Assembly: GCA_004322005.1 (NCBI GenBank)
Contig: SCRF01000109.1
Span: 632-64,631 of the forward strand
Direction: 5' to 3'
Length of the DNA stretch: 64,000 nt
Source of the DNA: Rhodanobacter sp.
GTDB lineage: Bacteria; Pseudomonadota; Gammaproteobacteria; Xanthomonadales; Rhodanobacteraceae
Below the pieces are notes generated by a model, which was not told the DNA's origin, searched no databases, and was given only the letters and a program-made list of their open reading frames with translations. Shown here piece by piece: positions 8,345 to 59,289 of the stretch (the stretch's first letter is position 1; each line of letters starts with the position of its first letter). The position numbers were made by a program, and so were the translations under genes.

Positions 8345-10708
8345 CTATAGCGGCGTCAGATGGGCATACGCGGCCACCAGCCACTTGCTGCCGGCACCTT
8401 CGAAATTCACCTGCAGGCGCATGTGCGCGCCGCTGCCTTCGGCACTGATCACCACGCCTTCGCCGAAGCTGGGGTGGCTGACCCGCTGGCCGAGTTTCAC
8501 CGGCAGGTCTTCCGCCAGCGAGGTGGATGCGCCATGGCGCGCCGCACCGCTGTAGAGCGGGCGGCTGACCTGCACGCGCGGGCGCACTTCGTCGATCAGT
8601 TCGCCCGGCATCTCGCCGAGAAAGCGCGACGGTCGCGCCAGCATCTCGGTACCGTGCATGCGGCGCGATTCGGCGTGGGTGACGATGAGTCTTTCGCGCG
8701 CGCGGGTGATGCCGACGTAGGCCAGCCGGCGCTCCTCTTCCAGCCGGCCTTCGTCGTCGACCGAACGCTGACTGGGAAACAGGCCCTCTTCCATGCCGAC
8801 CAGGAACACCACCGGAAATTCCAGCCCCTTGGCCGAATGCAGCGTCATCAGCTGCACGCAGTCGTCCCACGTCTCGCCCTGGTGCTCGCCGGCTTCCAGT
8901 GCCGCGTGCGACAGGAACGCCGACAGTTCGTTCAAACCCGTCTCGATGTCGTCAGGGGTCAGTTCGAAGCGGCTGGCGACGTTGATCAGTTCGTCCAGGT
9001 TTTCCACTCGCGATTCGGCGTTGCCGCGGCTGTCCTTCTCGTAGAAATCGCGCAGGCCGGTATGGGTGATCGTGTGGTCGATCTGTTCGGCGAGGGTGAG
9101 GCTCTGGGGACCGGGGACCAGGGACCGGGGACCGGCAGTGGGCAAGGCGTCGATGAGCTCGCGGGGTGTGGCTTCGCTGGAAGCGGCTTCTTCGGACGGT
9201 GCGATGGCCTCCGGGTCATCCGGTCCCCGGTCCCCGGTCCCCGGTCCCGCGAACGCACGCGCCAACTCCTCGATCAAGGCCAGAAACGCCTTCACCGTAT
9301 TCTTCGCGCGCCCGGCCAGTTCGCCGCCGGCCAGTTCGGTCAAGGCGGCTTCCCACATCGAGGTGTTCTGGCCGCGTGCGCGACGGCGCAGCACGTCCAG
9401 CGTGCGCTCGCCGATACCTCGCGCGGGTGTATTGACAGCCCGTTCGAATGCCGCATCATCATGCCGGTTCGCGGTAAGGCGAAGGTAGGCCAGGGCGTCC
9501 TTGACCTCGGCGCGATCGAAGAACCGCTGGCCGCCGTAGACGCGGTACTTGATGTTGCGCTGGGTCAGCTGTTCCTCGAAGTTGCGCGACTGTGCGTTGG
9601 AGCGGTACAGGATCGCGCAGTCTTTCGCGCTGCCCGGAGGTGAATCGTCGTGGCCGGCGATGAACTCGCGGATGCGCTCGATCACGAAGCGCGCCTCGTC
9701 CTGTTCGTTGTAGGCCGCGTACAGCGCGATGCGTTCGCCTTCGCCGCCGGCGGTCCACAGCTGCTTGCCCAGGCGCCCGCCGTTGTGCGCGATCACGCTG
9801 TTGGCGGCCTTGAGGATGGTCGCGGTGGAGCGGTAGTTCTGTTCCAGCTTGATCGTGCGGGCACCGGGGAAGTCGCGCAGGAACTGCTGCATGTTCTCGA
9901 CCTTGGCGCCGCGCCAGCCGTAGATCGACTGGTCGTCGTCGCCGACGGCGAACACTTGACCGGGACCGGTCCCCGGTCCCGGTCCCGCTCCAGCCCCAGA
10001 CAACACCCGGATCCACGCATACTGCAGCGTGTTGGTGTCCTGGAACTCGTCGATCAGCAGATGCCGCCAGCGCTGCTGGTAGTGCTCCAGCAGCGCCGGG
10101 TTCTTCAGCCACAACTCGTGCGCGCGCAGCAGCAGTTCGGCGAAGTCGACCAGCCCGGCGCGACGGCAGGCATCCTCGTAGGCCTGGTAGATCTGCACGA
10201 AGGTGCGGGTGACCGGATGGTCGCGGTGCTCGATGCTGCCCGGGCGTTTGCCCTCGTCCTTCCACTGGTTGATCTGCCAGCCGGCCTGGCGCGGCGGAAA
10301 CTTCGCCTCGTCCAGGCCCAGTCCGGCGACGACGCGCTTGACCAGCCGCAGCTGATCGTCGGCGTCGAGGATCTGGAAGGTCTCCGGCAACCCCGCCTCG
10401 CGCCAGTGCCGGCGCAGCAGGCGGTGGGCGATGCCGTGGAAGGTGCCGACGGTGAGCCCCTGGGTGCCGCCCGGAATCAGCGCGTCCAGCCGCGCGCGCA
10501 TCTCGCCGGCCGCCTTGTTGGTGAAGGTGACGGCGAGAATCGCCCATGGCGGTACGCGTTCAGCCTGGGTCAGCCAGCCGATCCGGTGGGTCAGGACGCG
10601 GGTCTTGCCGGAACCGGCGCCGGCCAGGATCAGGTAATGGCCGGGCGGGGCGCAGACCGCTTCACGCTGCGCGTCGTTGAGCGGGTCGATCAGGTGCGAG
10701 ACATCCAT
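8345..10708 (-). CDS. uvrD: DNA helicase II (UvrD)
   Basis: LNDAQREAV..AGAGSGKTRVL (Walker A), LIDEFQDTN, VGDDDQSIYGWRGA, and the C-terminus KWLVAAYAHL are collinear with E. coli UvrD. Two repeat-derived inserts interrupt the alignment. Confidence 0.95.
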   Translation of the reverse strand: MDVSHLIDPLNDAQREAVCAPPGHYLILAGAGSGKTRVLTHRIGWLTQAERVPPWAILAVTFTNKAAGEMRARLDALIPGGTQGLTVGTFHGIAHRLLRRHWREAGLPETFQILDADDQLRLVKRVVAGLGLDEAKFPPRQAGWQINQWKDEGKRPGSIEHRDHPVTRTFVQIYQAYEDACRRAGLVDFAELLLRAHELWLKNPALLEHYQQRWRHLLIDEFQDTNTLQYAWIRVLSGAGAGPGPGTGPGQVFAVGDDDQSIYGWRGAKVENMQQFLRDFPGARTIKLEQNYRSTATILKAANSVIAHNGGRLGKQLWTAGGEGERIALYAAYNEQDEARFVIERIREFIAGHDDSPPGSAKDCAILYRSNAQSRNFEEQLTQRNIKYRVYGGQRFFDRAEVKDALAYLRLTANRHDDAAFERAVNTPARGIGERTLDVLRRRARGQNTSMWEAALTELAGGELAGRAKNTVKAFLALIEELARAFAGPGTGDRGPDDPEAIAPSEEAASSEATPRELIDALPTAGPRSLVPGPQSLTLAEQIDHTITHTGLRDFYEKDSRGNAESRVENLDELINVASRFELTPDDIETGLNELSAFLSHAALEAGEHQGETWDDCVQLMTLHSAKGLEFPVVFLVGMEEGLFPSQRSVDDEGRLEEERRLAYVGITRARERLIVTHAESRRMHGTEMLARPSRFLGEMPGELIDEVRPRVQVSRPLYSGAARHGASTSLAEDLPVKLGQRVSHPSFGEGVVISAEGSGAHMRLQVNFEGAGSKWLVAAYAHLTPL
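9106..9248. repeat. GGGACCGG-type inverted repeat (29-30 bp arms, ~84 bp centre) inside uvrD, in frame
   Basis: Left arm 9106-9135 is ggggaccggggaccagggaccggggaccgg. Right arm 9220-9248 is its reverse complement with one mismatch. Confidence 0.85.
9958..9988. repeat. short GGGACCGGTCCC-type palindromic repeat inside uvrD, in frame
   Basis: gaccgggaccggtccccggtcccggtcccgc encodes AGPGPGTGPG, where E. coli UvrD has only about 4 residues (LAGDTGKV). Confidence 0.75.
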
Positions 10709-10780
10709 CGTGCCGATTGTACCGGGCTGCCCGATGAAAACCGCCGCGAATGCGGCGGCTTTCGGGCGTATCGACGACGC

Positions 10781-10999
10781 TCAATTTTTCTTGATGAAGC
10801 CGCCAACCGCCAGCAGGCCGCCCACCACGATGCCGGCGATGCCCAACCATCGCGGTATGTCCTTGTTCTGGGTGGCGGTGAGTTTGGCCGTACCGACCTG
10901 CAGCACGGTGTCGGTGTCCTGGTAGCTGGCATGGCCGGCGACGATCCAGATGCCGGCGACCAGCAGGATGATGCCGGCGATGATCAGTGCTGCGCGCAT
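10781..10999 (-). CDS. small two-TM membrane protein (DUF3185-like)
   Basis: ATG at 10999 preceded by GAGGAGAGG. 72 aa: MRAALIIAGIILLVAGIWIV...GIAGIVVGGLLAVGGFIKKN. Confidence 0.5.
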   Translation of the reverse strand: MRAALIIAGIILLVAGIWIVAGHASYQDTDTVLQVGTAKLTATQNKDIPRWLGIAGIVVGGLLAVGGFIKKN

Positions 11000-11169
11000 G
11001 AATGCCTCTCCTCGATGGATAGGTCGAGTATGCCGCGAGGTCATGTGCATAGAAAGTGCAGGTAAGAGCCACCCTGTGGGCGAAAACATGCTGCGATGCG
11101 GCCCGTGATCGCGCACAAGGTGCGCTCACAGCTCTGCGCCATGACGATCCGGGCAGAAGCCGATCCCCC

Positions 11170-11208
11170 AAAAAAAGACCCCGAAGGCCAGGGGGAGCCT
11201 TCGGGGTC
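11170..11208 (-). terminator. rho-independent terminator
   Basis: An 11-bp GC-rich stem (gaccccgaagg / ccttcggggtc) is followed on the minus strand by TTTTTTT. Confidence 0.75.
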
Positions 11209-11295
11209 GGTGGAGGCGAAACCCAGGGGAGAGGTTCGCGTCCGGTTGGCGGCCCAGGGAGGTGAGCCGGCCGCGGATGCCATTGCGTGCATCCG
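11170..11295 (-). ncRNA. candidate sX13-like small RNA (three stem-loops with C-rich loops plus terminator); 5' end approximate
   Basis: Minus-strand hairpins lie at 11249-11274 (loop ..CACCUCCCUG), 11216-11239 (loop CUCUCCCCUGGG) and 11177-11208 (loop CUCCCCCUGG), followed by U7. There is no credible ORF. Position is about 130-250 nt downstream of the polA stop. Confidence 0.5.
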
Positions 11296-11422
11296 ATAAC
11301 TTTGAACGGCGAATGCGGCGAAAGTTGCACAGGCTGCAGGGCAAATTTATCGCCGGTTCATATCATGAAACATTAACCTGCAAGTGGTTGTTGTGCTTGC
11401 AGGCCCGATTGCGGTAACGGCC

Positions 11423-14194
11423 TCAATGCGCCTCGTCCCAGTTCGCACCCACGCCCACATCGACCAGCAATGGCACCGCCAGTTCCGCCGCGCCTGACAT
11501 TCGTTCGATGACCGCGGCACGCACGCTGTCGACCGCGTCGACGCGCACCTCGAACACCAGCTCGTCGTGTACCTGCATCAGCATGTGCACGTCGTTGCGC
11601 CCGTTGATCCAGGCGGCCATGGCGATCATCGCGCGCTTGATGATGTCGGCCGCGGTGCCCTGCATCGGTGCATTCACCGCTGCGCGTTCGGCGCCCTGGC
11701 GCAGGCTCTGGTTGCGCGAGGCGAGGTTTTCCAGATACAGCCGCCGGCCGAACAGGGTCTCGACGTAGCCGTCGCGGTGCGCCTGCTCGCGCGTGGCGTC
11801 CATGTAGGCGCGCACGCCGGGGTAGCGCGCGAAGTAGCGCGCCATGTAATCGCCGGCCTCGCCGCGGTCGACGCCGAGCTGGCGGGCCAGTCCGAACGCG
11901 CTCATGCCGTACATCAGGCCGAAGTTGATCGCCTTGGCGGCACGGCGCTGATTGGTGGTGATTTCGTCCGGCGGCACACCGAACACTTCCGCCGCGGTGG
12001 CGCGATGCACGTCGCCGCCTTCGTGGAACGCGCGCAGCAGGCCCTCGTCGCCGGACAGGTGCGCCATGATGCGCAGCTCGATCTGCGAGTAGTCCGCCGC
12101 CAGCACCTGCCAGCCCGGCGGCGCGATGAAGGCCTGGCGGATGCGCCGGCCCTCCTCGGTACGCACCGGGATGTTCTGCAGGTTCGGGTCGGACGAGGAC
12201 AGCCGCCCGGTCGCCACCGCGCCCTGGTGATAGCTGGTGTGCACGCGGCCGGTGCGCGGGTTGACGATGCCGGCCAGCTTGTCGGTGTAGGTGGAACGCA
12301 GCTTGGCCAGGCCGCGATAGTCCAGGATCAGCCGCGGCAGCTCGTGTGTGTCGGCGATCGCTTCCAGGGCCTCCTCGTTGGTGGAGGGCTGGCCGGTCGG
12401 GGTTTTCAGCTTTGCCTTGAGGCCGAGTTCGTCGAACAGGATCGCCTGCAACTGCTTGGGCGAGTCCAGATTGAACTCGCGCCCTGCCGAGCCGAATGCC
12501 AGCTGCTGCAGTTCCAGCATCCGCTTGCCCAGTTGCTGGCTCTGCCGGCGCAGTTCGTCGCCGTCGATCAGCACGCCGTGCCGTTCCATCGCGGCCAGCA
12601 CCGGAACCAGCGGAATCTCGATCTCTTCGTAGACGCTGCGCAGCTTCGGCGCGCCCCGCAGCAAGGGCCACAGCGCGTGATGCAGGCGCAGGGTGACGTC
12701 GGCATCCTCGGCGGCATAGCGGCAGGCGGTATCCAGATCCACCTGCGAGAACGAAATCTGTTTCGCGCCCTTGCCGGTGACCTGCTCGTATTTGACCGTC
12801 TCGTAGCCGAGGTATTTGCGTGCCAGCGAATCCATGTCGTGGCGCGTGGCGGTGGCGTTCCACACGTAGGATTCGAGCATGCTGTCGTGGCGAAGCCCCT
12901 GCACGGCGATGCCGTAATGGCTGAGCACGTTGATGTCGTACTTGGCATGCTGGCCGAGCTTGGCTTTGGTGGTGTCCTCGAACAGCGGCTTGAGTGCGGC
13001 CAGCACGCTGTCGCGGTCGAGCTGCTCAGGCGCGCCGGGATAATCGTGGCCCAGCGGAATGTAGCAGGCCCGGCCCAGTTCCACCGCGAAGCTGATGCCG
13101 ACGATGTCCGCACGCATCGCGTCGATGCTGGTGGTTTCAGTGTCGAACGCGATCAGTTCGGCGCCGCGCAGTTTTTCCAGCCACGCATCGAAACGGGCCG
13201 GGGTAGTGACCAGTTCGTATTCGCCCGGCCCCCGTAGGAGCGCACCCTGTGCGCGAAGCTCTTGGGGCGATACTTCGGAGCTTTCGCTGGAGCTCTCGCC
13301 AGAGCTTTCGCCAGAGCTTTCGCGCACAGGGTGCGCTCCTACGGGGGCGGCGGGACCATCGAGCTCTTTCAGCGCCGCCTTGAACTCGTAACGGGTGTAC
13401 AGCTCGCGCAGCCGTGCGGTGTCTGCCTCGCGCCGGGCCAGGTCGGTGGGGCCGAATTCCAGCGGCACATCGGTCTTGATCGTCACCAGCTCGCGCGACA
13501 GCGGCAGCAGCGGCAGCGTGGCGCGCAGGCTCTCGCCGATCTTGCCGCCGATCCGGTCGGCGTTCGCGATCACGCCGTCCAGTGTGGTGTATTCGGTCAG
13601 CCATTTGGCGGCGGTTTTCGGGCCGCACTTGGGCACCCCAGGCACGTTGTCGATGGTATCGCCGGTAAGCGCGAGAAAATCGACGATCTGCTGCGGCCGC
13701 ACGCCGAATTTTTCCATCACCCCGGCGCTGTCGGTGATGGTGTTGCTCATGGTGTTGATGAGGGTCACGTGCGACCCCACCAGCTGCGCCATATCCTTGT
13801 CGCCGGTGGAGATCAGTACCTCGATGCCGAGTGCCTGCGCCTGCACGGCGAGCGTGCCGATCACGTCGTCGGCCTCGACCCCCGGCACGCGCAGGATCGG
13901 AAAACCGAGCGCGCCCACGATCGCCAGCATCGGTTCGACCTGCGCGCGCAGGTCGTCCGGCATCGGCGGCCGGTTCGCCTTGTACTGCTCGTACAAGACG
14001 TCGCGGAAGGTCGGGCCGGGAGCATCGCTGACGAAGGCGAGATAATCCGGGTTGGCCTTCAACGTCGCGCGCAGCATGTTGACCACGCCGAACAGCGCGC
14101 CGGTCGGTTCGCCGTGGGCATTGCTCAGCGGCGGCAGCGCATGGAAGGCGCGATACAGATAGGAAGAGCCGTCGATCAGTATGAGTTTGGCCAT
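11423..14194 (-). CDS. polA: DNA polymerase I
   Basis: The 5' nuclease (LILIDGSSYLYRAFHA), the 3'-5' exonuclease (IAFDTETTS) and the polymerase motifs (DYSQIELRIMAH, QVHDELVFE) are all present. An alternative ATG lies at 14209. Confidence 0.95.
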   Translation of the reverse strand: MAKLILIDGSSYLYRAFHALPPLSNAHGEPTGALFGVVNMLRATLKANPDYLAFVSDAPGPTFRDVLYEQYKANRPPMPDDLRAQVEPMLAIVGALGFPILRVPGVEADDVIGTLAVQAQALGIEVLISTGDKDMAQLVGSHVTLINTMSNTITDSAGVMEKFGVRPQQIVDFLALTGDTIDNVPGVPKCGPKTAAKWLTEYTTLDGVIANADRIGGKIGESLRATLPLLPLSRELVTIKTDVPLEFGPTDLARREADTARLRELYTRYEFKAALKELDGPAAPVGAHPVRESSGESSGESSSESSEVSPQELRAQGALLRGPGEYELVTTPARFDAWLEKLRGAELIAFDTETTSIDAMRADIVGISFAVELGRACYIPLGHDYPGAPEQLDRDSVLAALKPLFEDTTKAKLGQHAKYDINVLSHYGIAVQGLRHDSMLESYVWNATATRHDMDSLARKYLGYETVKYEQVTGKGAKQISFSQVDLDTACRYAAEDADVTLRLHHALWPLLRGAPKLRSVYEEIEIPLVPVLAAMERHGVLIDGDELRRQSQQLGKRMLELQQLAFGSAGREFNLDSPKQLQAILFDELGLKAKLKTPTGQPSTNEEALEAIADTHELPRLILDYRGLAKLRSTYTDKLAGIVNPRTGRVHTSYHQGAVATGRLSSSDPNLQNIPVRTEEGRRIRQAFIAPPGWQVLAADYSQIELRIMAHLSGDEGLLRAFHEGGDVHRATAAEVFGVPPDEITTNQRRAAKAINFGLMYGMSAFGLARQLGVDRGEAGDYMARYFARYPGVRAYMDATREQAHRDGYVETLFGRRLYLENLASRNQSLRQGAERAAVNAPMQGTAADIIKRAMIAMAAWINGRNDVHMLMQVHDELVFEVRVDAVDSVRAAVIERMSGAAELAVPLLVDVGVGANWDEAH
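13229..13347. repeat. GTAG-type REP inverted dimer with an internal 4 x 12 bp tandem array, inside polA, in frame
   Basis: Arms are cccccgtaggagcgcaccctgtgcgcgaa (13229-13257) and ttcgcgcacagggtgcgctcctacggggg (13319-13347). The 12-mers gagctttcgctg/gagctctcgcca/gagctttcgcca/gagctttcgcgc span 13278-13325. Confidence 0.9.
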
Positions 14195-14287
14195 GCGCCA
14201 TTCTCGCATGCACGCGCGAATCGGCGCGCTTCACGAACGCTCGGCGGGCGCACTGCTATGCTTTGCTTCCCGATCGAGGTTGCCGCC

Positions 14288-14794: not shown

Positions 14795-14871
14795 TGCCGC
14801 TCTTGGCATTTCGTCCTCGATGCATGCCGGGTTGCCGGCATCAGGGGCGCCCCCGGGGAAGAGGATGAACG

Positions 14872-15303: not shown

Positions 15304-15319
15304 ACGGTCCGACAGGCTG

Positions 15320-15544
15320 CTAGAGCGGATCGTCCAGCTCAGGGTAATGGCGGAAGATGCCGTTCTCGTTGAACGCCAGCCGCCGCGGAGAGTCGAGATA
15401 AGCCGCGATGCGCGGCCGTTCCGCGACCCGTTTGGCCAGGGCCCGCAGCCGTGGGAGGTCGCGCCCGAGGCGCCGCATCGTGCGGGGGAACGCGTAGTCC
15501 AGTCCGGCCATCAGCTGGAATAGCGAAAGGTCGACATAGGAGTG
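15320..15544 (-). pseudogene. remnant of a glutathione S-transferase (C-terminal domain only)
   Basis: ..[47 protein letters not shown] looks like a GST C-terminal domain. The thioredoxin-like N-domain is missing. The ORF track's first 15 codons (to 15589) are REP sequence. Confidence 0.45.
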
Positions 15545-15553
15545 TTCGCGCGT

Positions 15554-15624
15554 GTAGGAGCGCACCTTGTGCGCGATGCTCTTCGTCACGTGACGAAAAG
15601 CTCGCGCACAGGGTGCGCTCCTAC
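15554..15624. repeat. GTAG-type REP inverted dimer
   Basis: gtaggagcgcaccttgtgcgcgatgctcttcgtcacgtgacgaaaagctcgcgcacagggtgcgctcctac. Confidence 0.85.
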
Positions 15625-15632
15625 CGGCGGGG

Positions 15633-18719: not shown

Positions 18720-19733
18720 TCAGCGACGCCGACCGCTGATCCGCACCCAGTCCTCGCGGCGATCCACGCGCAGCTCGTCAAACCATTCCGCGTAATGCTG
18801 CAGCAGTTCATCCTGCTGGCCGGCGAGGATGCCGGAGATCGCGAACGGTGCGCGTGGCTTGGCGGCGGCAGCGAACGTCGGCGCCAGCTCGAGCAACGGG
18901 CCGGCGAGGATGTTCGCGAGAAACACGTCGGCAGGCGACGTGCATGGATGCACTAGTGTCGCGGGCGCAGGATGCGCAGGAGCGACCGACGTGCATGGAT
19001 GCACTAGTGTCGCGGGCGCAGGATGCGCAGGAGCGACTTGCCCGCAAAAATCCTGCGGGAGATACAGCGCCAGCCGTTCGGCGACGCCATTGCGTTGGGC
19101 GTTGTCGGCCGAGGCAGTCAGTGCCTGCGGATCGTTGTCGATGCCCACGGCACTGGCCGCACCGAGCTTCAGCGCGGCGATCGCCAGAATGCCCGAGCCG
19201 CAGCCGTAGTCGATCACACTCTTGCCGGCCAGCTCGAGCCCGTCGAGCCATTCCAGGCACAGCGCGGTGGTCGGATGCGTGCCGCTGCCGAAGGCCAGGC
19301 CCGGGTCGAGCCGGACCACCACCGGCGCGTCATCGCCGTTCTCGCTGTGCGTGGGCGGCTCGATGTTCCACGGATAGATCCACAGGCGCCGGCCAAACGG
19401 CATCGGCCGGTACTGGTCCATCCACACCCGTTCCCAGTTCTGGTCGGCCACTTCGCGAAACTGCAGCTGATCGGGTTCGAGCCATGGCAGCAGTTCACCG
19501 AGTGTTTCGCTGAGACCGCGGCGATCGACGTGTTCGTCGAACAGTGCCTGCAGGGTGATCGTCGGCCACAGCGGCAATTCGCCCACGCCGGGCTCGAAGA
19601 TCGCCTGTTCGTCCGGCGTCTGCGCATCGGCGTCCTGCAGGGTGATCGACAGCGCGCCCAGATCGTTCAGCGCGTCTTCGACAGCGGGTTGCTGAGTGGC
19701 GCGGACAGTGAGGGAAAGTTCAAGCCATGGCAT
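18720..19733 (-). CDS. prmA: ribosomal protein L11 methyltransferase
   Basis: MPWLELSL.., DPGLAFGSGTHPTT, DYGCGSGILAIAA and ANILAGPL are collinear with E. coli PrmA except for a 34-aa duplicated insert. Confidence 0.9.
   Translation of the reverse strand: MPWLELSLTVRATQQPAVEDALNDLGALSITLQDADAQTPDEQAIFEPGVGELPLWPTITLQALFDEHVDRRGLSETLGELLPWLEPDQLQFREVADQNWERVWMDQYRPMPFGRRLWIYPWNIEPPTHSENGDDAPVVVRLDPGLAFGSGTHPTTALCLEWLDGLELAGKSVIDYGCGSGILAIAALKLGAASAVGIDNDPQALTASADNAQRNGVAERLALYLPQDFCGQVAPAHPAPATLVHPCTSVAPAHPAPATLVHPCTSPADVFLANILAGPLLELAPTFAAAAKPRAPFAISGILAGQQDELLQHYAEWFDELRVDRREDWVRISGRRR
18937..19038. repeat. perfect-but-one 2 x 51 bp tandem duplication inside prmA, in frame
   Basis: The unit gacgtgcatggatgcactagtgtcgcgggcgcaggatgcgcaggagcgacc occurs at 18937-18987 and again at 18988-19038 (last base differs). 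It encodes VAPAHPAPATLVHPCTS twice. Confidence 0.9.
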
Positions 19734-19752
19734 GGTCGAGTTCGTTCGGTGG

Positions 19753-19831
19753 GTAGGAGCGCACCCTGTGCGCGAAAAGCTCTGATCGAAACGTCCGTAA
19801 AGAGCTTTTCGCGCACAGGGTGCGCTCCTAC
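19753..19831. repeat. GTAG-type REP inverted dimer (prmA-accC intergenic)
   Basis: gtaggagcgcaccctgtgcgcgaaaagctct...agagcttttcgcgcacagggtgcgctcctac. Confidence 0.9.
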
Positions 19832-19839
19832 GGGGGTGA

Positions 19840-21207: not shown

Positions 21208-21223
21208 GGGGAAAACTCCGGAG

Positions 21224-21314
21224 GCCGGGACCGGGGACCGGGAACCAGGGACCGGAAGAGCAAAAGCGGCGCGGCTCTTGGCTTTTCCTGGTCCCTGGTT
21301 CCCGGTTCCCGGCC
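21224..21314. repeat. GGGACCGG-type imperfect inverted repeat filling the accB-accC spacer
   Basis: The arm gccgggaccggggaccgggaaccagggaccgg pairs with cctggtccctggttcccggttcccggcc. A central mini-hairpin aagagc..gctctt is present. The element begins 5 nt from the accC Shine-Dalgarno. Confidence 0.8.
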
Positions 21315-21324
21315 CCGCCCAAAA

Positions 21325-22312: not shown

Positions 22313-22476
22313 GAAACCCCCAGCTTGCGTCCGGACATCCGGGCATCGACGCAGTTTGCACGTAGTCGGGAATGTTGTCCAGTTCACTGCAGATCGGCGA
22401 TGTTTGGCGGAGAAGCCTGGGGGTTTCCGTGCGTAGGCGTATGTCGACCCGATGCCTGGCAGCCTGTTGGACCGTT

Positions 22477-22612
22477 GGTCGGCCGGGCTGCGAACCCGTC
22501 TATGCGATCCCTATTTCCGCCGCTTCTTGGCTGGAACCACCATGGGCCAAGAAGCGGCGAGTTCTGTCCTCGCACAGCCGAATTCTCGCCTCGACCACCA
22601 AAGCCCGGCAGG
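22477..22612. repeat. ~140 bp dispersed element, copy A (second copy at 39683-39822)
   Basis: Shares ggtcggccgggctgcgaa..tct.tgcg.tcc..tat..cg.cgcttcttgg at one end and ctgt.c..gcaca.ccgaattctcgcctcgaccaccaaa..cc.g.caggc at the other. The centre is the hairpin cgccgcttcttggc/gccaagaagcggcg. Confidence 0.75.
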
Positions 22613-22615
22613 CGG

Positions 22616-23155
22616 CTAGGGCTGCTCGGCGGGTGTTGTCAGCCAGGCCTCCAGTTGCGCGGCAGGCACGGCGCCGACGTGGGTTGCCTGCACGCGTCCA
22701 TCGGCGTCGAGCAGCACACTGTAAGGTAATACGCCTTGCGTATCGCCGAGTTGCCGCGAGCTGTCCGGTGCGCCGAGCTGGCCCAGCCAGACCGGGTAAT
22801 TAAGCCGATGCGTCGCCAGAAATGCACGCACGCGGCCGGGTTCGTCCATCGCAATGCCGACGATGACCACGCCGTGGTCGCCGAACTTCGCCTGGGCCCG
22901 GGTCAGTGCCGGCATTTCGTCCAGGCACGGGCCGCACCAGCTGGCCCAGAAATTCAGCAGTACACGACGGCCGCGATAGTCGCTCAGTCGGTGCTGCCTG
23001 CCGTCAAGATCAGGCAGGCTCAGTGGTGGTGCCGGTTGACCGGCCAGGCTCGAGTCCGCGGTTGCCGACAGCGGGCCGCGGTGTGCGGCATAGCCGCCGA
23101 TCGCACCAGCCAGTACCGCCAGGAGGAGGATCAACCAGTTGCTGCGGCTCATCAT
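22616..23155 (-). CDS. TlpA-family thiol:disulfide oxidoreductase (membrane-anchored thioredoxin-like)
   Basis: N-terminal TM anchor and NFWASWCGPC active site. The start overlaps the dsbD stop (ATGA at 23152-23155). Confidence 0.8.
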   Translation of the reverse strand: MMSRSNWLILLLAVLAGAIGGYAAHRGPLSATADSSLAGQPAPPLSLPDLDGRQHRLSDYRGRRVLLNFWASWCGPCLDEMPALTRAQAKFGDHGVVIVGIAMDEPGRVRAFLATHRLNYPVWLGQLGAPDSSRQLGDTQGVLPYSVLLDADGRVQATHVGAVPAAQLEAWLTTPAEQP

Positions 23156-25784: not shown

Positions 25785-25985
25785 GTAGGAGCGCACCCTG
25801 TGCGCGAATACCTTTATCCGAGCGCCCCCGCCTCGCCACCCGCGTAGGAGCCCGCTCGCGGGCGATGCTCTGATAGCGTGGCCAGAAGAGCATCGCCCGC
25901 AAGCGGGCTCCTACTGGTGGTGGGTGCGAGCCGATGCCGAGCGTCGCGCCGACGTTCGCTTTATCGCCCGCAAGCGGGCTCCTGC
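25785..25985. repeat. cluster of GTAG-type REPs (solo, inverted dimer, solo)
   Basis: Solo gtaggagcgcaccctgtgcgcga at 25785-25807. Dimer gtaggagcccgctcgcgggcgatgctct..agagcatcgcccgcaagcgggctcctac at 25844-25914. Solo atcgcccgcaagcgggctcctgc at 25963-25985. Confidence 0.85.
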
Positions 25986-26017
25986 CGGCGGCGGTGGGGC
26001 CTGGATATCGGGCGGCC

Positions 26018-26599: not shown

Positions 26600-28264
<1,665 letters not shown>

Positions 28265-34289: not shown

Positions 34290-34359
34290 GTAGGAGCCCG
34301 CTCGCGGGCGATGCTCTGGGGTCGCGCGATCAGGGCATCGCCTGCGAGCGGGCTCCTGC
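34290..34359. repeat. GTAG-type REP inverted dimer
   Basis: gtaggagcccgctcgcgggcgatgctct..gcatcgcctgcgagcgggctcctgc. It overlaps the last ~10 codons of the 34330-35322 CDS. Confidence 0.85.
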
Positions 34360-39682: not shown

Positions 39683-39822
39683 GGTCGGCCGGGCTGCGAA
39701 TCCTTCTGTGCGGTCCACTATCCGGCGCTTCTTGGTCCATAGAGGCACGATGAGCCGTCGAAGCATCGAAATCTGTCTCTGCACAACCGAATTCTCGCCT
39801 CGACCACCAAAATCCGACAGGC
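39683..39822. repeat. ~140 bp dispersed element, copy B (first copy at 22477-22612)
   Basis: See copy A. The ends are well conserved and the centre has diverged. Confidence 0.75.
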
Positions 39823-39904
39823 TCCTGGTTCGCGCTCGCCTACAATGCGTGACCGCCTTCGATCCGGGCAACGCACGGTCTCCCTCGGCATGATCTCATC
39901 CGGC

Positions 39905-44296: not shown

Positions 44297-44377
44297 ACGT
44301 AAACAGGCAGGCATGCCAGTCAAGCCATTTCTCACAAACCCTTCTGAAATAAACCGTGCGCGCAGCGCACACCATTG

Positions 44378-44475
44378 CCTCCTCCCCCTTGAGGGAGGAT
44401 TGAGGAGGGGAGGTCAAGTTGCCGCCACGCCCCAAGAGCGACCCCACCCCGGCCCTCCCCGGCAAGCAGGGGAGG
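44378..44475. repeat. C-tract/G-tract hairpin repeats in the lpxL-waaA divergent spacer
   Basis: cctcctcccccttgagggaggattgaggaggggagg at 44378-44413 and ccctccccggcaagcaggggagg at 44453-44475. Confidence 0.6.
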
Positions 44476-51815: not shown

Positions 51816-51902
51816 TTGTGGTTCGTTGCGGCGTGGGCCTTACCGCTTGGCAGAGCGGGGCTTTGTTGTAGTTCGTGGCAGCGTGGAGGCCCTCACCCCT
51901 TG

Positions 51903-51926
51903 CCCTCTCCCGCAAGCGGGAGAGGG
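51903..51926. repeat. C-tract/G-tract hairpin repeat
   Basis: ccctctcccgc-aa-gcgggagaggg (perfect 11-bp stem). Confidence 0.7.
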
Positions 51927-51984
51927 GGAGTCGGTGCCGAGCGGGAGCGCTCATCGGGAACTACGGTAACCCCACGGCTGATCG

Positions 51985-54039
<2,055 letters not shown>

Positions 54040-54200
54040 CGGAGCCTCCCATGAGTTGTCACCCTGACCCCCGGAGTTGTCGACAGACAAGCCGGAGATG
54101 ACCGTCCAGGACGGGCGGTCCCGTGGAGTATAGACAGACGTTGTGGCGCAGGCTGTTGTGCGGCGCAATGTCGCACAGGTGCGGGTCACGACCGTGCAAC

Positions 54201-54230
54201 GAAAAGGCCCTGCACGGATGCATGGCCTTT
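54201..54230 (-). terminator. hairpin terminator downstream of the RcnB-like gene
   Basis: aaaggccctgca-cgga-tgcatggccttt. Confidence 0.5.
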
Positions 54231-54268
54231 AGTCGTTTGCGATGGCGCCGGCTCAGTGCGAAAGCGGC

Positions 54269-54670
54269 TCAGTGCGTCGCGATATCCAGGATGATGCCGG
54301 TAGCGACAGCGACCAGCAGATAGTCATTGTCGTCGTCACGTACCCAGCGGTAGCCGCGCGGTGGCGGGCGCAGACGGTAGTATCTGTAGTCGCGGACCAC
54401 ATAGTCCGGACCGTCGTAGCGATGACCGCGTTCCCAATGACGATGCCCATAATGGCGCCGGCCACCGCCCCGATCGCCGTAGCCGTGATCGTGATCGCGG
54501 CTACGGTCATGGCGACCTCGGTCGTGACCATCGCCATGGCCCCGGTCATGCCCCCGGTCGTGGCCATGATGGTCCTGCTCGTCGTGGTCTCGTGGGCTGG
54601 GTGCGGCCAGCGCCAGACTGGCGCTGGCGAGCAGGCAGGTGGCGAACAAAAGGCGGTGGATGATTTTCAT
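54269..54670 (-). CDS. RcnB-like periplasmic protein with a His/Asp/Arg/Gly-rich tract
   Basis: GGAGG Shine-Dalgarno and a signal peptide. An HDRGHDRGHGDGHDRG-type tract is followed by the C-terminal ..PPPRGYRWVRDDDNDYLLVAVATGIILDI typical of RcnB/YohN. Confidence 0.55.
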   Translation of the reverse strand: MKIIHRLLFATCLLASASLALAAPSPRDHDEQDHHGHDRGHDRGHGDGHDRGRHDRSRDHDHGYGDRGGGRRHYGHRHWERGHRYDGPDYVVRDYRYYRLRPPPRGYRWVRDDDNDYLLVAVATGIILDIATH

Positions 54671-54835
54671 CAAGGTGTCCTCCGTATGGTGTGACGGCTG
54701 CAGCATTGCAGTCGTCAACCGGGCAGTTCCATCGTAAGAACCTGTGCCTGAACGCAAGGGCGCGTTCAGGCGGTTCGCTTCAGCCTCTCAGTCTCGGGCA
54801 CGGCAGCGGCTGGCGCACGTTCCTTCCTTGCGGGC

Positions 54836-56119
54836 TCAGCGCAACGAGGCGAAGTCAGCCAGTTTCCTGGCCACGGCAACATTCCTGAGCTGCACGTAGC
54901 GTGGCAGGCCATCCTTGCCGTACGGCAGCGGTGCTTCACCGCGGATCAGCGGCACCAGATAGCGGCGGGCGGCAGCGGTGATGCCGAAGCCGTCGCGGCT
55001 GATGAAGTTTCTCGGCATCTTCTTTTCGCGATTGGCGATCTTCGCCAGCGCTGCCGGTTCGATCTTCCAGCGGTATGGGGCATCGCTGCTGCGCACGATC
55101 ACCGGCATCACGGCGTTCATGCCGGCCAGCGCATAGCCGACCGCGGCCTTGCCGACCGCAAAGGCCTGTTCGGCATCTACCGCGGAGGCGGCATGACGTG
55201 CGGAACGCTGCAGGTAATCGGGCACCGCCCAGTGGTATTTGTAGCCCAGCTTTTCCTGCACGAGTGCGGCCAGCACCGGCGCCACGCCGCCGAGCTGGGC
55301 GTGCCCGAATGCATCGCGCGTACCTGCTTCGGCGAGGAACTGGCCGGCGGCGTTGCGCACGCCCTCGGAGGCGACCACGGTGCACCAGCCGACGCGTTCG
55401 ACCGTGGCTTTCACCCGGGCCAGGAATGCCGCTTGGTCGAACGGGTTCTCGGGGAACAGGATGATGTGCGGCGCCGCATCCCCGTCTTCGCCGGCGAGGC
55501 CGGCGGCAGCGGCGATCCAGCCCGCATGGCGACCCATCACTTCGAGGATGAACACCTTGGTCGAGGTTTCGGCCATCGAGGCCACATCGAGGCTCGCTTC
55601 CAGCGTGGAGATCGCGGTGTACTTGGCGACCGAACCGAAGCCGGGGCAGCAGTCGGTTACCGCCAGATCGTTGTCCACCGTCTTCGGCACGCCGATGCAG
55701 CGGATGTCGTAGCCCAGGGCCTTGCCGATCTGCGAGATCTTCAACGCCGTGTCGGCCGAATCGTTGCCGCCGTTGTAGAGAAACCAGCGGATGTTGTGCG
55801 CACGGAACACCTCGATCAGCCGTTCGTACTCGGCGCGGTTCGCCTCCAGCGACTTCAACTTGTAGCGGCAGGAGCCGAACGCGCCGCCGGGGGTATGGCG
55901 CAGCGCGGCGATCGCGGCCTTCGATTCCTTCGAGGTGTCGATGAGCTCTTCGCGCAGCGCGCCGAGGATACCGTTGCGGGCGGCGTAAACCTTTACGCCG
56001 CGGGCACGCGCGGCTTCGATCACGCCGGCGGCGGTGGCATTGATCACCGCAGTCACGCCGCCGGACTGGGCGTACAGCAGGTTGCCGGTGATGGCGGGCA
56101 GGGGGCGGGTTGGGCTCAT
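54836..56119 (-). CDS. pfp: pyrophosphate-dependent 6-phosphofructokinase (PPi-PFK) family
   Basis: ..AQSGGVTAVINA.., GGNDS, PKTVDNDL and MGRHAGW motifs. Start at the internal ATG 56119 with a GAGGA Shine-Dalgarno. PPi versus ATP specificity is inferred, not proven. Confidence 0.75.
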   Translation of the reverse strand: MSPTRPLPAITGNLLYAQSGGVTAVINATAAGVIEAARARGVKVYAARNGILGALREELIDTSKESKAAIAALRHTPGGAFGSCRYKLKSLEANRAEYERLIEVFRAHNIRWFLYNGGNDSADTALKISQIGKALGYDIRCIGVPKTVDNDLAVTDCCPGFGSVAKYTAISTLEASLDVASMAETSTKVFILEVMGRHAGWIAAAAGLAGEDGDAAPHIILFPENPFDQAAFLARVKATVERVGWCTVVASEGVRNAAGQFLAEAGTRDAFGHAQLGGVAPVLAALVQEKLGYKYHWAVPDYLQRSARHAASAVDAEQAFAVGKAAVGYALAGMNAVMPVIVRSSDAPYRWKIEPAALAKIANREKKMPRNFISRDGFGITAAARRYLVPLIRGEAPLPYGKDGLPRYVQLRNVAVARKLADFASLR

Positions 56120-56308
56120 GGGTGTCCTCGATGGCAGTGGTGGTCTAGAGATGGTCAGTGGCAAATCTTTCAGCAACAGGTAGTTGGCGGCAAGTGACGA
56201 ACGAATCTGTTTGACGGCACCCGGTGCAGACGCTAATTTGGCCACTCATTCTGGGAATCTGTCGGGCAGCTGCAGTGTGTGGCCACCCCGCCAAACATGT
56301 GGAGCATT

Positions 56309-56893
56309 ATGCGACTTGTCCTACTAGGTGCGCCCGGCTCGGGCAAAGGGACGCAGGCGGCCCGGCTCAAGACGGCACTGGGTGTGCCGCACATCTCCAC
56401 CGGCGACATGCTGCGTGCCGCCGTCGCGGCAGGTACGGCGATGGGACTGAAGGCCAAGGCGGTGATGGATGCCGGGCAACTGGTCTCCGACGACATCCTG
56501 CTCGGCATGCTGGAAGATCGTCTTGCGCAGGATGACGCCAAGGCCGGTTTCATCCTGGACGGCTATCCGCGCAACCTTGCCCAGGCCGATGCGCTCGATC
56601 ACCTGCTGGCCCGGATCGGTCAGCCACTGGATGCGGTCGTCAAGCTCAAGGTCCCCAGCGAAGTGATCGTGGGCCGCTGCGAGATCCGCTTCAAGGCGGA
56701 AGCCCGGGCCGACGACAATCCGGACACCGTGCGCAAGCGGCTGGACATCTATGCCGAACAGACGGCGCCGGTGGCGGATTTCTACGCCAGGCGGGGCAAG
56801 CTGCAGGTCGTCGACGGTGTCGGCGAGCTCGACGAGATCACGGCGCGGATCAAGCGTGCGCTGCACGCCGAATCGGCCACCGCCGGCAACTGA
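56309..56893 (+). CDS. adk: adenylate kinase (short-lid type)
   Basis: MRLVLLGAPGSGKGTQA..ISTGDMLR..ILDGYPR. Confidence 0.92.
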   Translation: MRLVLLGAPGSGKGTQAARLKTALGVPHISTGDMLRAAVAAGTAMGLKAKAVMDAGQLVSDDILLGMLEDRLAQDDAKAGFILDGYPRNLAQADALDHLLARIGQPLDAVVKLKVPSEVIVGRCEIRFKAEARADDNPDTVRKRLDIYAEQTAPVADFYARRGKLQVVDGVGELDEITARIKRALHAESATAGN

Positions 56894-56976
56894 GCGGCAC
56901 GGACCGCTGCTCCGTCTTGTAGGGCGGCATCAATGCGATGCCGCCCGGCGCCACGCTTTCACGCAACGGGTTATCC

Positions 56977-58419
56977 ATGCGCCTGCATATCCTCGGTATC
57001 TGCGGCACCTTCATGGGCGGCGTCGCCGCGCTGGCACGCGAGCTCGGGCTGAGCGTCGAGGGTTCCGACGCCAACGTCTACCCGCCGATGAGCGACCAGT
57101 TGCAGGCGCTGGGTATCGAGCTGATGCACGGTTATGCGGCGGAACATCTGCAGCCGGCGCCGGACCTGGTGGTGGTCGGCAACGCGATGACCCGCGGCAA
57201 TCCGGCGGTGGAGTACATGCTGGATCAGCGTCTGCGCTACATCTCCGGCCCGCAGTGGCTGGGCGATACCGTGCTGGCGCAGCGCGAGGTGCTGGCGGTG
57301 GCCGGCACGCACGGCAAGACCACCACCGCGAGCCTGTTGGCGCATCTGCTGGAAAGTATGGGGCTCGCGCCGGGGTTCCTGATCGGCGGGGTGCCGGGGA
57401 ATTTCGGGGTGTCGGCGCGGCTGGGTGGAGTGCGGCCGCACGGCGCTCAGAGTCCTCCTTCCGGCGCTGCGCGCCTCCTTCCCCCGCGGGCGGGGGGGGA
57501 CGCCAGGGTGTTGGCTGCGCCGTTTGTGATTGAGGCGGATGAATACGACACGGCGTTCTTCGACAAGCGCTCGAAGTTCGTGCATTACCATCCACGCATC
57601 GCGATCCTGAACAATCTCGAGTACGACCATGCCGACATCTTCCCGGATGTGGCCGCGATCCAGCGCCAGTTCCATCATCTGGTGCGCATCGTGCCGGGGA
57701 ATGGACGGCTGATCGTCAATGCCGATGATCGTCGCCTCGCCGAAGTGCTGGCGATGGGCTGCTGGACGCCGGTGGAAACCTTCGGCATCGGTGGCGGCGA
57801 TTGGCAGGCAAGCTTGATCGAGGCGGACGGCTCGGCCTTCGTCGTGCATCGTCGCGGCGAGCGGATCGGCGAGGTGCGCTGGCCGCTGCTGGGCAGGCAC
57901 AGCGTGATGAATGCGCTCGCCGCACTCGCCGCTGCGACCGCGGCGGGTGCCGATCCACGCGCGCTGCTTGGCGCATTCGCCACGTTCGAGGGCGTGAAAC
58001 GGCGGATGGAACTCGTGGGCGAGGTCAATGGCGTGCGCGTCTACGACGACTTCGCCCATCACCCCACCGCGATCGCCACGACCCTGGCCGGGCTGCGCGC
58101 CAGGGTCGGCAAGGCGCGCATCCTGGTGGCATTGGAACCACGCTCCAACTCGATGCGCCAGGGCGCGCATGCGCAGGCGCTGGCGCCCTCGCTGGCCGAT
58201 GCCGATGTCGTGTTGCTGCTGCATCGTCCGGAACTGGCGTGGGATGCCGGTCGGGTCACCGCGGCGCTGGGCGGCCGCGGCAGCACGGTACCGACGGTGG
58301 ATGCGCTGATCGATGCACTGCGCGGCCAGGTACAGCCGGGTGACCAGGTCATCTTCATGTCCAATGGCGGCTTCGAGGCTGCACCACGGCGTTTCGTGGA
58401 GAGCCTGCGGCGGCATTGA
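56977..58419 (+). CDS. mpl: UDP-N-acetylmuramate:L-alanyl-gamma-D-glutamyl-meso-DAP ligase
   Basis: MRLHILGICGTFMGG.., GTHGKTTT, IEADEYDTAFFDKRSKFVHY and NLEYDHADIF are collinear with E. coli Mpl except for one ~30 aa insert. Confidence 0.88.
   Translation: MRLHILGICGTFMGGVAALARELGLSVEGSDANVYPPMSDQLQALGIELMHGYAAEHLQPAPDLVVVGNAMTRGNPAVEYMLDQRLRYISGPQWLGDTVLAQREVLAVAGTHGKTTTASLLAHLLESMGLAPGFLIGGVPGNFGVSARLGGVRPHGAQSPPSGAARLLPPRAGGDARVLAAPFVIEADEYDTAFFDKRSKFVHYHPRIAILNNLEYDHADIFPDVAAIQRQFHHLVRIVPGNGRLIVNADDRRLAEVLAMGCWTPVETFGIGGGDWQASLIEADGSAFVVHRRGERIGEVRWPLLGRHSVMNALAALAAATAAGADPRALLGAFATFEGVKRRMELVGEVNGVRVYDDFAHHPTAIATTLAGLRARVGKARILVALEPRSNSMRQGAHAQALAPSLADADVVLLLHRPELAWDAGRVTAALGGRGSTVPTVDALIDALRGQVQPGDQVIFMSNGGFEAAPRRFVESLRRH
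57427..57522. repeat. C-tract/G-tract repeat-like insertion inside mpl, in frame
   Basis: ..cctccttccggcgctgcgcgcctccttcccccgcgggcgggggggga.. encodes GVRPHGAQSPPSGAARLLPPRAGGDARVLAAP between SARLG and FVIEADEYD. Confidence 0.6.
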
Positions 58420-58526
58420 GGCGGCAAATTCTCGTGCTGGACGCAGGAGCCGGGAGCCGCAGTGGACAGGCCACGGGAATCGTCGGGATCGTGGTTTGCG
58501 GCGATGGCAGCGGCTAAACTGAGCCG

Positions 58527-59129
58527 ATGGTTGTGCCGACTCCACTCATCGAGATGCCCTTGTTTCCGCTCTCTGCGGTGCTGTTTCCCGGTGGCCAGCT
58601 GCAGTTGCGCATTTTCGAGCCGCGCTATCTCGACCTGGTCCGCGAATGCACCCGCCAGGGTGCCGGTTTCGGTGTGTGCCTGATCCTGCAGGGGACCGAG
58701 ACGGGGGCACCGGCAGTGCCGGCCGGCATCGGCACGATGGCACGCATCAGCGACTTCGATCGCGACGACGATGGTCTGCTGGGCATTGTCGCCGAGGGCG
58801 GCTCGCGCTTCCGGGTCGAGCGCAGCCGGGCGCGATCCGATGGGCTGCTTCGCGGCGACGTGGAGGTATGGCCGGCGGAACCGGCACTGGCAGTACCGGT
58901 GGAGTTTGCCTTGCTGCAAAACATCCTGGAACGGCTGATCGAGACGATGTCGCCGCGTTGGCGGCATGCGCCACGCAGTGCCTATGACGATGCGAGCTGG
59001 CTGGGGTTTCGTCTGGCTGAGCTGTTGCCGCTGGAGCCGATCGAGCAACAGCGCATGCTGGAGTTGAACGACCCGCTGCTGCGGCTGGCGGAATTGCGCG
59101 ACATCCTGCCCCGATTTCAGAAGGGGTGA
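58527..59129 (+). CDS. LON substrate-binding (N-terminal) domain protein
   Basis: MPLFPLSAVLFPGGQLQLRIFEPRY.. is the classic LON_N start. There is no ATPase or protease part. Confidence 0.7.
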   Translation: MVVPTPLIEMPLFPLSAVLFPGGQLQLRIFEPRYLDLVRECTRQGAGFGVCLILQGTETGAPAVPAGIGTMARISDFDRDDDGLLGIVAEGGSRFRVERSRARSDGLLRGDVEVWPAEPALAVPVEFALLQNILERLIETMSPRWRHAPRSAYDDASWLGFRLAELLPLEPIEQQRMLELNDPLLRLAELRDILPRFQKG

Positions 59130-59214
59130 GTGGCCGACGGTCGATCGGCTGCGACCGACCCGACTCCAGCAGCCTGACCGGCGGGAGCGATCCGCCCGGT
59201 AGCGCCGTGCCCCC

Positions 59215-59289
59215 GTAGGAGCGCGCTTGCGCGCGATGCTCTTGTCGATGAACATCCGCGGAGAGCATCGCGCGCAAGCGCGCTCCTAC
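59215..59289. repeat. GTAG-type REP inverted dimer
   Basis: gtaggagcgcgcttgcgcgcgatgctct..agagcatcgcgcgcaagcgcgctcctac. Confidence 0.85.

Follow-up and report, generated by a model that had tools for sequence, protein, structure and literature searches.

Short palindromic repeats in the reading frames of conserved genes of a free-living Rhodanobacter

Short GC-rich palindromic repeats lie in frame within conserved genes of Rhodanobacter sp., as revealed by a 64,000-nucleotide stretch of its genome (assembly GCA_004322005.1, contig SCRF01000109.1, positions 632 to 64,631), hereafter called the window. Repeat-derived sequence is found at two sites in uvrD, in polA, in prmA and at the C-terminus of an ELM1-like gene, and a decayed element is present in mpl. 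One family comprises repetitive extragenic palindromic (REP) units with a GTAG head, arranged as inverted doublets of the REPIN type (REP doublets forming hairpins), whereas the arms of another are built from tandem GGGGACC heptamers. Members of these families recur between genes, the inserts can be translated in frame, orthologous alleles are in several cases empty, and the occupants of a site turn over between relatives. The best overall explanation, to which we assign a probability of roughly 75%, is that palindromic repeats were fixed passively and in frame at tolerant sites and then reshaped in place. We infer that the inserts are most likely near-neutral passengers rather than functional modules.

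Genes were called from their third-position GC content (GC3) and verified with Pfam, with about 60 GC3-supported open reading frames (ORFs) scanned; the GC content of the window ranges from 62 to 71% along its length and is about 66% overall. The ORFs are intact and have complete Pfam domain sets. The decorated genes and their repeat-derived segments are listed below in window coordinates.

8345-10708, minus strand: uvrD, called from GC3 and Pfam
9106-9249, minus strand: uvrD site 1, (GGGGACC)n palindrome, translated at about residues 487-534, about 48 residues (GPGTGDRGP...GPRSLVPGP)
9958-9986, minus strand: uvrD site 2, mini-palindrome GACCGGGACCGG/CCGGTCCCGGTC within a 9-residue insert at about residues 241-250, between helicase motifs II and III
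11423-14209, minus strand: polA, called from GC3 and Pfam
13229-13347, minus strand: GTAG-REP doublet (REPIN-like) in the polA linker, read through as about residues 288-327, nearly the whole inter-domain linker
18720-19733, minus strand: prmA, called from GC3 and Pfam
18936-19037, minus strand: prmA insert, two 51-bp units with 100% identity (VAPAHPAPATLVHPCTS x2), residues 233-266, 34 residues
Ending at 34330, minus strand: ELM1-like gene, identified by Pfam PF06258
56938-58419, plus strand: mpl, called from GC3 and Pfam
57424-57516, plus strand: mpl loop insert, 31 residues replacing QGK, about 28 extra residues
Predicted insert peptide of UvrD: GPGTGDRGPDDPEAIAPSEEAASSEATPR
Predicted insert peptide of PolA: ESSGESSGESSSESSEVSPQELR

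Comparisons were made with related loci, denoted by L numbers. Genome and metagenome scans with uvrD returned mostly distant helicases among the matches listed and about 20 useful loci, the closest uvrD loci among these matches being those of Rhodanobacter and Dyella; an exact look-up of the UvrD protein gave no match, and protein searches matched almost exclusively Rhodanobacter. The left 20 kb of the window is syntenic with L164, an ENA assembly (93.8% nucleotide identity), and L165, a metagenome-assembled genome from NCBI (91.0%), while the right 17 kb is covered by two other contigs (92.0% and 90.2% nucleotide identity). L169 represents R. umsongensis.

The arms of the element at uvrD site 1 (9107-9135 and 9220-9248) are 29 nt long, 97% complementary and separated by an 84-nt loop, with a predicted RNA hairpin of -92.5 kcal/mol (z = -6.9), and they are 93.5% identical over 31 nt to an intergenic copy at 21226. 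Palindromes with (GGGGACC)n arms occupy three loci in the window, namely both uvrD sites and the intergenic position 21223-21320, and the string GGGACCGG occurs 15 times against 3.96 expected, a count that none of 100 shuffles reached. By alignment, site 1 corresponds to three residues between positions 472 and 476 of E. coli UvrD, and the site 2 insert falls between D239 and T240. The AlphaFold2 (AF2) model of UvrD, built from a shallow alignment, is poor (mean predicted local distance difference test score, pLDDT, of 50) and usable around site 1 only, where residues 490-534 show pLDDT <50 and no secondary structure, with two confident helices on either side. In outgroups, site 1 is short; across the genus, it either holds a short segment of 18-30 residues or is filled by heptamer arms of the GGGGACC, GGGGAAC, GGGAATC or GGGACTC type, by a CCCTCTCCCC/GGGGAGAGGG element or by a CGTC-like dimer. 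L165 carries a CCCTCTCC-type element at the exact position taken by the heptamer element in the window and L164.

The palindromic insert of uvrD site 2 is missing from all of 14 related loci; L116, which is among them, has an insert of 5 residues that is unrelated. Among 120 database homologues, this site is empty in 107 and holds a segment of 5-6 residues in 10, including the two closest relatives; a heptamer-arm insert is present in the window and two other homologues of the 120. In the closest relatives, the site holds a degenerate form of 15 nt with a common CGGGAC...CCGGTCAA core, to which the window adds 12 nt, so that the perfect array seen here must in part be a local expansion. Three lineages carry three different heptamer families at this site. 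R. umsongensis contains a (GGGACTC)n element at both uvrD sites, with an identical stretch of 27 nt, paralleling the presence of GGGGACC at both sites in the window. A GAAGAGCAAAG motif of this common stretch (L169 10700-10840 and 11440-11560) recurs at 21256-21290 in the window, where the loop of the intergenic heptamer palindrome begins, which hints at a heptamer-arm family with a conserved core. A literature search found no paper containing the heptamer strings, and the class as a whole (GGGGACC, GGGGAAC, GGGAATC and GGGACTC, with lineage-specific arms and a partly conserved core) is apparently undescribed. Two side observations concern the same subjects. Two further intergenic hairpins lie at 51895-51935 and 44376-44418, and one of them, CCCTCTCCC-GCAAGC-GGGAGAGGG upstream of hppA, is of the family found at uvrD site 1 of L002, L003 and L165. 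In addition, hemX contains a coding (CCGCGCG)x6 tract (1938-1979) that differs from its counterpart in L165 by 21 nt, or three units, in frame.

In polA, the REP arms (13234-13257 and 13319-13342) enclose a loop widened by a 12-nt tandem at 13278-13323 (SGESSGESSSESS), the units of which are derived from the inner flank of the REP itself. Over 24-25 nt, the arms match the intergenic copies at 19753 and 25785 with 100% identity, and the hairpin has a predicted energy of -98.1 kcal/mol (z = -11.9). The element sits between the Pfam domains 5_3_exonuc (ending at residue 264) and DNA_pol_A_exo1 (starting at residue 331), that is, between the 5'-3' and 3'-5' exonuclease domains. Since the linker is of similar length with or without a REP (186 nt in the window, 141-192 nt in relatives), the element has replaced the ancestral linker rather than constituting a net insertion. 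It is shared with L164 and L165 (91-94% nucleotide identity), whose versions vary only in how many 12-nt units the loop contains, and is thus old rather than a recent arrival; in L165, its two ends show the matched changes GTAG>GCAG and CTAC>CTGC. Elsewhere, the linker is occupied by a CCCTCTCC-type dimer (Dyella agri) or by another GTAG subfamily with a GCGACTTCAGTCGC stem (R. umsongensis, L169 7440-7560), and it is repeat-free in five further relatives. In Dyella agri and R. umsongensis, the linker was colonised independently. The polA sequence of L169 also shows an apparent frame shift just past the REPIN, beside runs of G5 and T5, and the contig has no recorded polA gene; either a homopolymer was misread in sequencing or polA is split in this genome.

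The prmA insert comprises two identical 51-bp units, each with two small hairpins. It coincides with segment 233-264 of the AF2 model of PrmA, which shows pLDDT <50 and no secondary structure. The insert is not present in L001, L003, L004, L084 and L164, and alleles without it encode proteins of 298-299 residues. Among the PrmA homologues with a parsable loop, 67 are empty, 12 contain one 17-residue copy (APAHPAPAALVHPCTS), four contain two copies and six a nested addition of 16 residues; three homologues read the reverse complement (ADVHGCTSAASAGSAGA). Exactly the unit of the window, in a single copy, is found in the homologue P0122 (87% identical overall), and L165 has one copy as well. These one-copy and empty relatives indicate that an older palindromic insert was duplicated recently to give the tandem of the window. 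In L168, the same 51-bp element lies in the opposite orientation, as verified at the DNA level, and only there is it flanked by a 12-nt direct repeat (GCGGCCGAyGTG). The end of the unit is the inverted complement of the adjoining native GCCGACGTG. A second locus of the unit was found neither in the window nor in about 300 kb of related loci.

A comparable series of alleles exists in mpl. The loop is empty (GQGK) in 50 of 114 Mpl homologues, mostly proteins of 452 or 457 residues, and filled in others by a 'PSSGAARHLLPxGEG' (type-1) element (49 homologues), by a 'GQSxF...SDSDP' element (nine homologues; in L167 a perfect palindrome with 19-bp arms, GGGGGTCAGAGTCACTTTT) or by (CGAATCC)4 (two homologues, including L082). 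The mpl element of L166 retains an intact hairpin, CCTTCCCCC-GGA-GGGGGAAGG, and the insert in the window matches it over 27 nt at 96% identity; the window copy has lost the hairpin and folds no better than shuffled sequences (z = +0.84). It represents a decayed remnant of the 'PSSGAARHLLPxGEG' element, which many Rhodanobacter carry at this site. An earlier note on this DNA had placed the mpl insert in a C/G-tract family, an assignment that we had to abandon, given that it has no match elsewhere in the window or in the same 300 kb or so of related loci and lacks a significant fold.

At the ELM1-like gene, the repeat has become the end of the protein. A REP arm (34333-34359, minus strand) provides the last nine codons (AGARSQAMP), and the spacer of the doublet, immediately next to that arm, provides the stop codon (34330-34332). 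The Pfam Elm1 match stops 13 residues short of this stop codon.

The GTAG-REP family is represented by at least 13 units in the 64 kb, of which two are wholly intragenic, while one arm is intragenic in part. All 12 exact GTAGGAGC/GCTCCTAC heads are located at a palindrome end, at the outer end of the unit, and two more units have GCAG instead. Beside the head lies an imperfect palindrome (for instance GCGCAC-CCT-GTGCGC, GCCCGC-TC-GCGGGC or GCGCGC-TT-GCGCGC) with stem and loop lengths in the range that defines REPs (5-13 bp and 2-20 nt), and the stems fall into three subfamilies. Six inverted doublets, with arms of 27-37 nt that are 89-100% complementary, form one long hairpin each. Leaving aside the mpl insert, the predicted hairpins are strong, with z-scores ranging from -3.6 to -11.9; for the doublets, fold z-scores of -11.9 and -13.3 were obtained. 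Two of the eight strongest local palindromes of the window lie inside genes (polA and uvrD), one extends over the 3' end of the ELM1-like gene and five are intergenic. The copies that lie wholly or partly between genes are as follows.

11067-11168: decayed GTAG-REP doublet, intergenic between polA and uvrD, not in L164 or L165
15554-15624: GTAG-REP doublet, intergenic, at the deletion junction of a truncated glutathione S-transferase (GST) gene
19753-19831: GTAG-REP doublet, intergenic between prmA and accC, 31-nt arms, 100% complementary
21223-21320: heptamer-arm palindrome, intergenic between accB and accC, fold -84 kcal/mol, z = -8.1
25785-25994: cluster of four GTAG-REP units, intergenic between cutA and groES
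34290-34359: GTAG-REP doublet downstream of glnE, intergenic at 34290-34318, with its right arm inside the ELM1-like gene
59215-59289: GTAG-REP doublet, intergenic, within a 152-nt insertion (59162-59313) specific to the window

Counting the GTAG family and the one heptamer palindrome, the intergenic tally amounts to 11-13 units at 7-8 loci; the nine intergenic sites claimed previously are thus borne out when units are counted but not quite reached when loci are. Close relatives lack two intergenic REP doublets that the window has acquired, the one in the insertion at 59162-59313 and the decayed pair at 11067-11168. Pfam scans of the roughly 60 window ORFs detected no RAYT (REP-associated tyrosine transposase), Y1 or other transposase domain, in agreement with the earlier note.

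Two of the intergenic loci deserve separate mention. Next to purH, the GST gene (15320-15632) consists only of an 89-residue C-terminal fragment, compared with 236 residues in L164, L165 and L169. A deletion has removed about 490 nt from the 5' part of the gene, and the location of the REP doublet 15554-15624 at the junction suggests a repeat-associated deletion. The spacer between accC and prmA (window 19734-19839; L164 120-230; L165 370-470) contains a separate GTAG-REP subfamily in each of these three relatives, which are 90-94% identical. In L164, outer remnants of the window-type REP surround a doublet of its own, indicating that the new doublet was nested into that REP or replaced it. 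Coding DNA is therefore not the only place where the occupants of a fixed position turn over.

Taken together, the coordinates, arms and reading frames confirm the central proposal of the earlier note in part, with repeat sequence lying in frame at both uvrD sites, in polA, at the ELM1-like C-terminus and in the prmA 51-bp tandem. Its statement that the inserts fall in linkers or loops agrees with the low AF2 confidence at uvrD site 1 and in PrmA and with the inter-domain position in PolA, and the search for empty sites that it had recommended was successful for uvrD site 2, prmA and mpl, with just a short segment at uvrD site 1. The orthologues without inserts identify these segments as insertions rather than ancestral sequence; an ancestral protein origin is excluded at uvrD site 1 by the short outgroup segments, at site 2, in prmA by the alleles of 298-299 residues and in mpl by those of 452 residues. 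That intragenic copies preserve the frame is correct as far as the intact ORFs are concerned but does not hold as a property of the elements, as their intergenic lengths are scattered modulo 3; a built-in multiple-of-three design was rejected on the same ground. Each element has 3-6 of 6 frames open, and the heptamer arms contain no stop codon in any frame. Together with the scattered lengths, these many open frames mark frame preservation as survivorship, GC-rich palindromes being cheap to translate. The idea of very active mobilisation holds only in part. The REPIN of polA is an old element that took the place of a linker, and some of the changes specific to the window arose locally by slippage or duplication, namely in the 12-nt units of polA, with the second copy of the 51-bp unit in prmA and with the additional 12 nt at uvrD site 2.

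On this basis, we propose that the genome harbours several families of short GC-rich palindromic repeats. The GTAG-headed REP doublets would presumably depend for their movement on a RAYT whose gene lies in another part of the genome, the (GGGGACC)n palindromes have no known mobilising enzyme, and the prmA and mpl elements may be older relics. Copies would arise genome-wide, and those that spare the frame would persist at a few tolerant protein sites, namely the polA linker, the UvrD loop that aligns with residues 472-476 of the E. coli protein, the UvrD loop between motifs II and III, a loop of the PrmA methyltransferase fold, the Mpl loop and a C-terminal tail. There, they would be translated as Gly/Pro/Ser/Ala-rich, probably disordered segments and later change by slippage (the polA 12-nt units and the uvrD heptamers), tandem duplication (prmA), decay (mpl) or replacement by another family. 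Several points weigh against this model. Translation of the inserts is deduced from the reading frames, and no RAYT or other transposase is present in the window. Of the two marks of miniature inverted-repeat transposable elements, inverted arms are present, but no clear target-site duplication was found at the uvrD or polA junctions. The assignment of the prmA and mpl inserts to repeat families would follow from their palindromic structure and the allele series in the genus, with no second copy in about 300 kb. The placement of UvrD site 2 comes from the alignment only, as the AF2 model is poor overall, and some of the variation stems from local slippage, not from transposition.

The same codon positions hold different families, opposite orientations or nothing across Rhodanobacter and Dyella, which, at the level of sequence comparison, points to a recurrent re-use of few sites. 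Such family turnover at identical positions calls for an explanation beyond random hits followed by filtering. One conceivable answer, which we consider tentative, is that palindromes preferentially integrate into existing hairpins or gene-convert them, so that families overwrite each other once a site has been seeded. This idea would account for the separate REP subfamilies and nested remnants in the accC-prmA spacer, the CCCTCTCC-type element of L165 at the uvrD position of the heptamer element, the identical 27-nt element at both uvrD sites of R. umsongensis with its GGGGACC parallel in the window, and the matched end changes of the polA REPIN in L165. Fitch counts on single-gene neighbour-joining trees give at least 21-32 changes of insert state, a rough indication only as the trees are noisy and, at 80-90% identity and with possible recombination, inflate homoplasy. 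However, the sites are often empty, and several of the filled ones, such as that of L082 mpl, show no earlier relic, so that independent hits on empty sites would explain the pattern too. The more specific possibility that the two uvrD positions and those in polA, prmA and mpl are long-lived landing pads in housekeeping genes of Rhodanobacteraceae, where one unrelated family after another entered the resident hairpin by integration or overwrote it by gene conversion and the coding sequence consequently turned over much faster than the rest of the gene, is one that we hold with still greater reserve.

It is unlikely that replication slippage and fold-back template switching generated the heptamer arrays and the prmA tandem locally, without any dispersed mobile element. 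The numbers of the 12-nt and 51-bp tandem copies do vary between close relatives, as does the hemX (CCGCGCG)6 tract, by 21 nt; uvrD site 2 has grown by 12 nt around a common CGGGAC...CCGGTCAA core, and the end of the prmA unit inversely complements the adjacent native GCCGACGTG. Yet slippage accounts for the growth of arrays and not for their seeding, and a local origin is difficult to reconcile with one heptamer family at three separate window loci, one of them intergenic, with the presence of each genome's own heptamer variant at both uvrD sites or with GTAG-REP arms that are identical between distant loci. We find it quite improbable that the inserts are retained adaptively, either as length-tuned linkers or as hairpins that regulate expression or alter DNA-repair proteins. 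While the polA linker measures 141-192 nt whether REP-derived or not, the polA REPIN arms have stayed perfect despite 6-9% nucleotide divergence and two decorated genes function in DNA repair, as in the published survey discussed below, similar species often have empty alleles, the sequence, family and orientation of the occupant are interchangeable, the mpl copy has decayed, and three of the proteins concerned (PrmA, Mpl and the ELM1-like protein) do not function in repair. An artefact, be it repeat misassembly of a contig that may be metagenome-assembled or a chance resemblance of ancestral protein sequence, is effectively refuted by the recurrence of the same inserts in independent assemblies (L164 and L165) and of analogous ones in isolate genomes, by the intact ORFs with full domain sets and by an arm identity over 24-31 nt that is far beyond chance. 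Passive fixation at tolerant sites followed by reshaping accordingly remains the reading that we prefer.

This reading can be compared with several known systems. Rickettsia palindromic elements (RPEs; summarised in PMC3733652), as Ogata and colleagues reportedly described in 2000, lie in frame in conserved protein genes, are lacking in the orthologues and are found in non-coding DNA as well. The Rhodanobacter elements resemble them in forming in-frame palindromes in conserved ORFs, in being missing from orthologues and in having non-coding copies, and may thus be said to work like RPEs, a claim about behaviour rather than about family membership. The hosts differ, AT-rich obligate intracellular alphaproteobacteria in one case and a free-living gammaproteobacterium with 66% GC in the other, and so, probably, do the repeat families. 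The RPE-like interpretation put forward earlier was nevertheless right in substance, with repeat-derived inserts in frame, insert-free orthologues and poorly ordered positions. Intragenic tandem repeats and slippage tracts are a further source of in-frame copy-number change in coding DNA, and the 12-nt (polA), 51-bp (prmA) and 21-nt steps (three 7-nt units in hemX; 7-nt units also in uvrD) are of this kind, except that the slipping units described here do not stem from native coding sequence but come from, or lie within, palindromic elements of dispersed families.

The closest precedent is provided by GTAG- and CGTC-type REPs. Although REPINs have been described as essentially extragenic (Bertels & Rainey 2011, PMC3116915), the view in the earlier note that REPs are extragenic by definition is outdated, as intragenic GTAG/CGTC REPs, typically contributing 20-30 residues, have been catalogued in many free-living bacteria (Di Nocera, De Gregorio & Rocco 2013, BMC Genomics 14:522, PMC3733652). 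The elements in the window share with REPIN-RAYT systems the pairing of two inverted REP units in one long hairpin, multiple copies (here within 64 kb) and subfamilies within a genome, but differ in having intragenic copies and in that a cognate RAYT was not found within the window. Among the proteins listed in the 2013 survey are a UvrD/REP helicase and, with a REP dimer at residues 338-367, the DNA polymerase I of R. palustris. The survey reports an enrichment in replication and repair genes, advances a mutator hypothesis, which the idea of altered DNA-repair proteins mentioned above follows, and notes many REPs at the ends of ORFs, with REP ends that overlap the 3' end and provide stop codons; it also proposes a location in linkers or loops (PMC3733652). 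Our observations match it in the GTAG units and head-to-head dimers within ORFs of known proteins, in the involvement of UvrD and of the same DNA polymerase I linker, and in the stop codon supplied by a REP end. They differ in the organism, with Rhodanobacter receiving 0 mentions there, in the participation of non-GTAG families (the heptamer-arm, prmA and mpl elements) and in the genus-wide allele series, with several families, both orientations and empty sites at the same codons, of which we found no equivalent in the text of that paper. The phenomenon is thus real and unusually dynamic, but a further case of a kind known from other free-living bacteria.

Some observations concern the remainder of the window. 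Its other genes include purH, accC, accB, dsbD, cutA, groES/EL, glnE and a lipopolysaccharide-core cluster. It yielded 0 matches at gathering score in Rfam 15, and a tRNA scan was also empty. A non-palindromic intergenic element of about 150 nt, likewise lacking an Rfam match, is present in two copies with 83% identity, one (22476-22616) in the gap between aroQ and a thioredoxin-like gene preceding dsbD and the other (39683-39826) upstream of an O-antigen ligase-like gene; it could be a small RNA or a repeat similar to miniature inverted-repeat transposable elements. The second of the two further intergenic hairpins mentioned above, CCTCCTCCCCC/GGAGGGGAGG, lies between lpxL and waaA. Finally, an rcnB-like gene between hppA and pfk (54266-54740) has no counterpart in L081 and is mostly gone from L167, a small difference in gene content that is unrelated to the repeats.

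Collectively, our findings add a free-living, high-GC genus, for which many genomes and metagenomes are available, to the few cases of selfish palindromes written into essential proteins. Hypervariable in-frame segments of this type will disturb alignments, marker-gene phylogenies (uvrD and polA) and gene calling, as exemplified by the apparent frameshift after the REPIN in R. umsongensis polA. If existing hairpins do attract new palindromes, hairpin-targeted integration would be at work inside essential genes. The natural allele series at four or five sites, comprising empty, duplicated and nested states, several families and both orientations, makes it possible to test how sites are chosen, how fast their occupants turn over and whether the extra peptides or mRNA hairpins are of any relevance to the cell.

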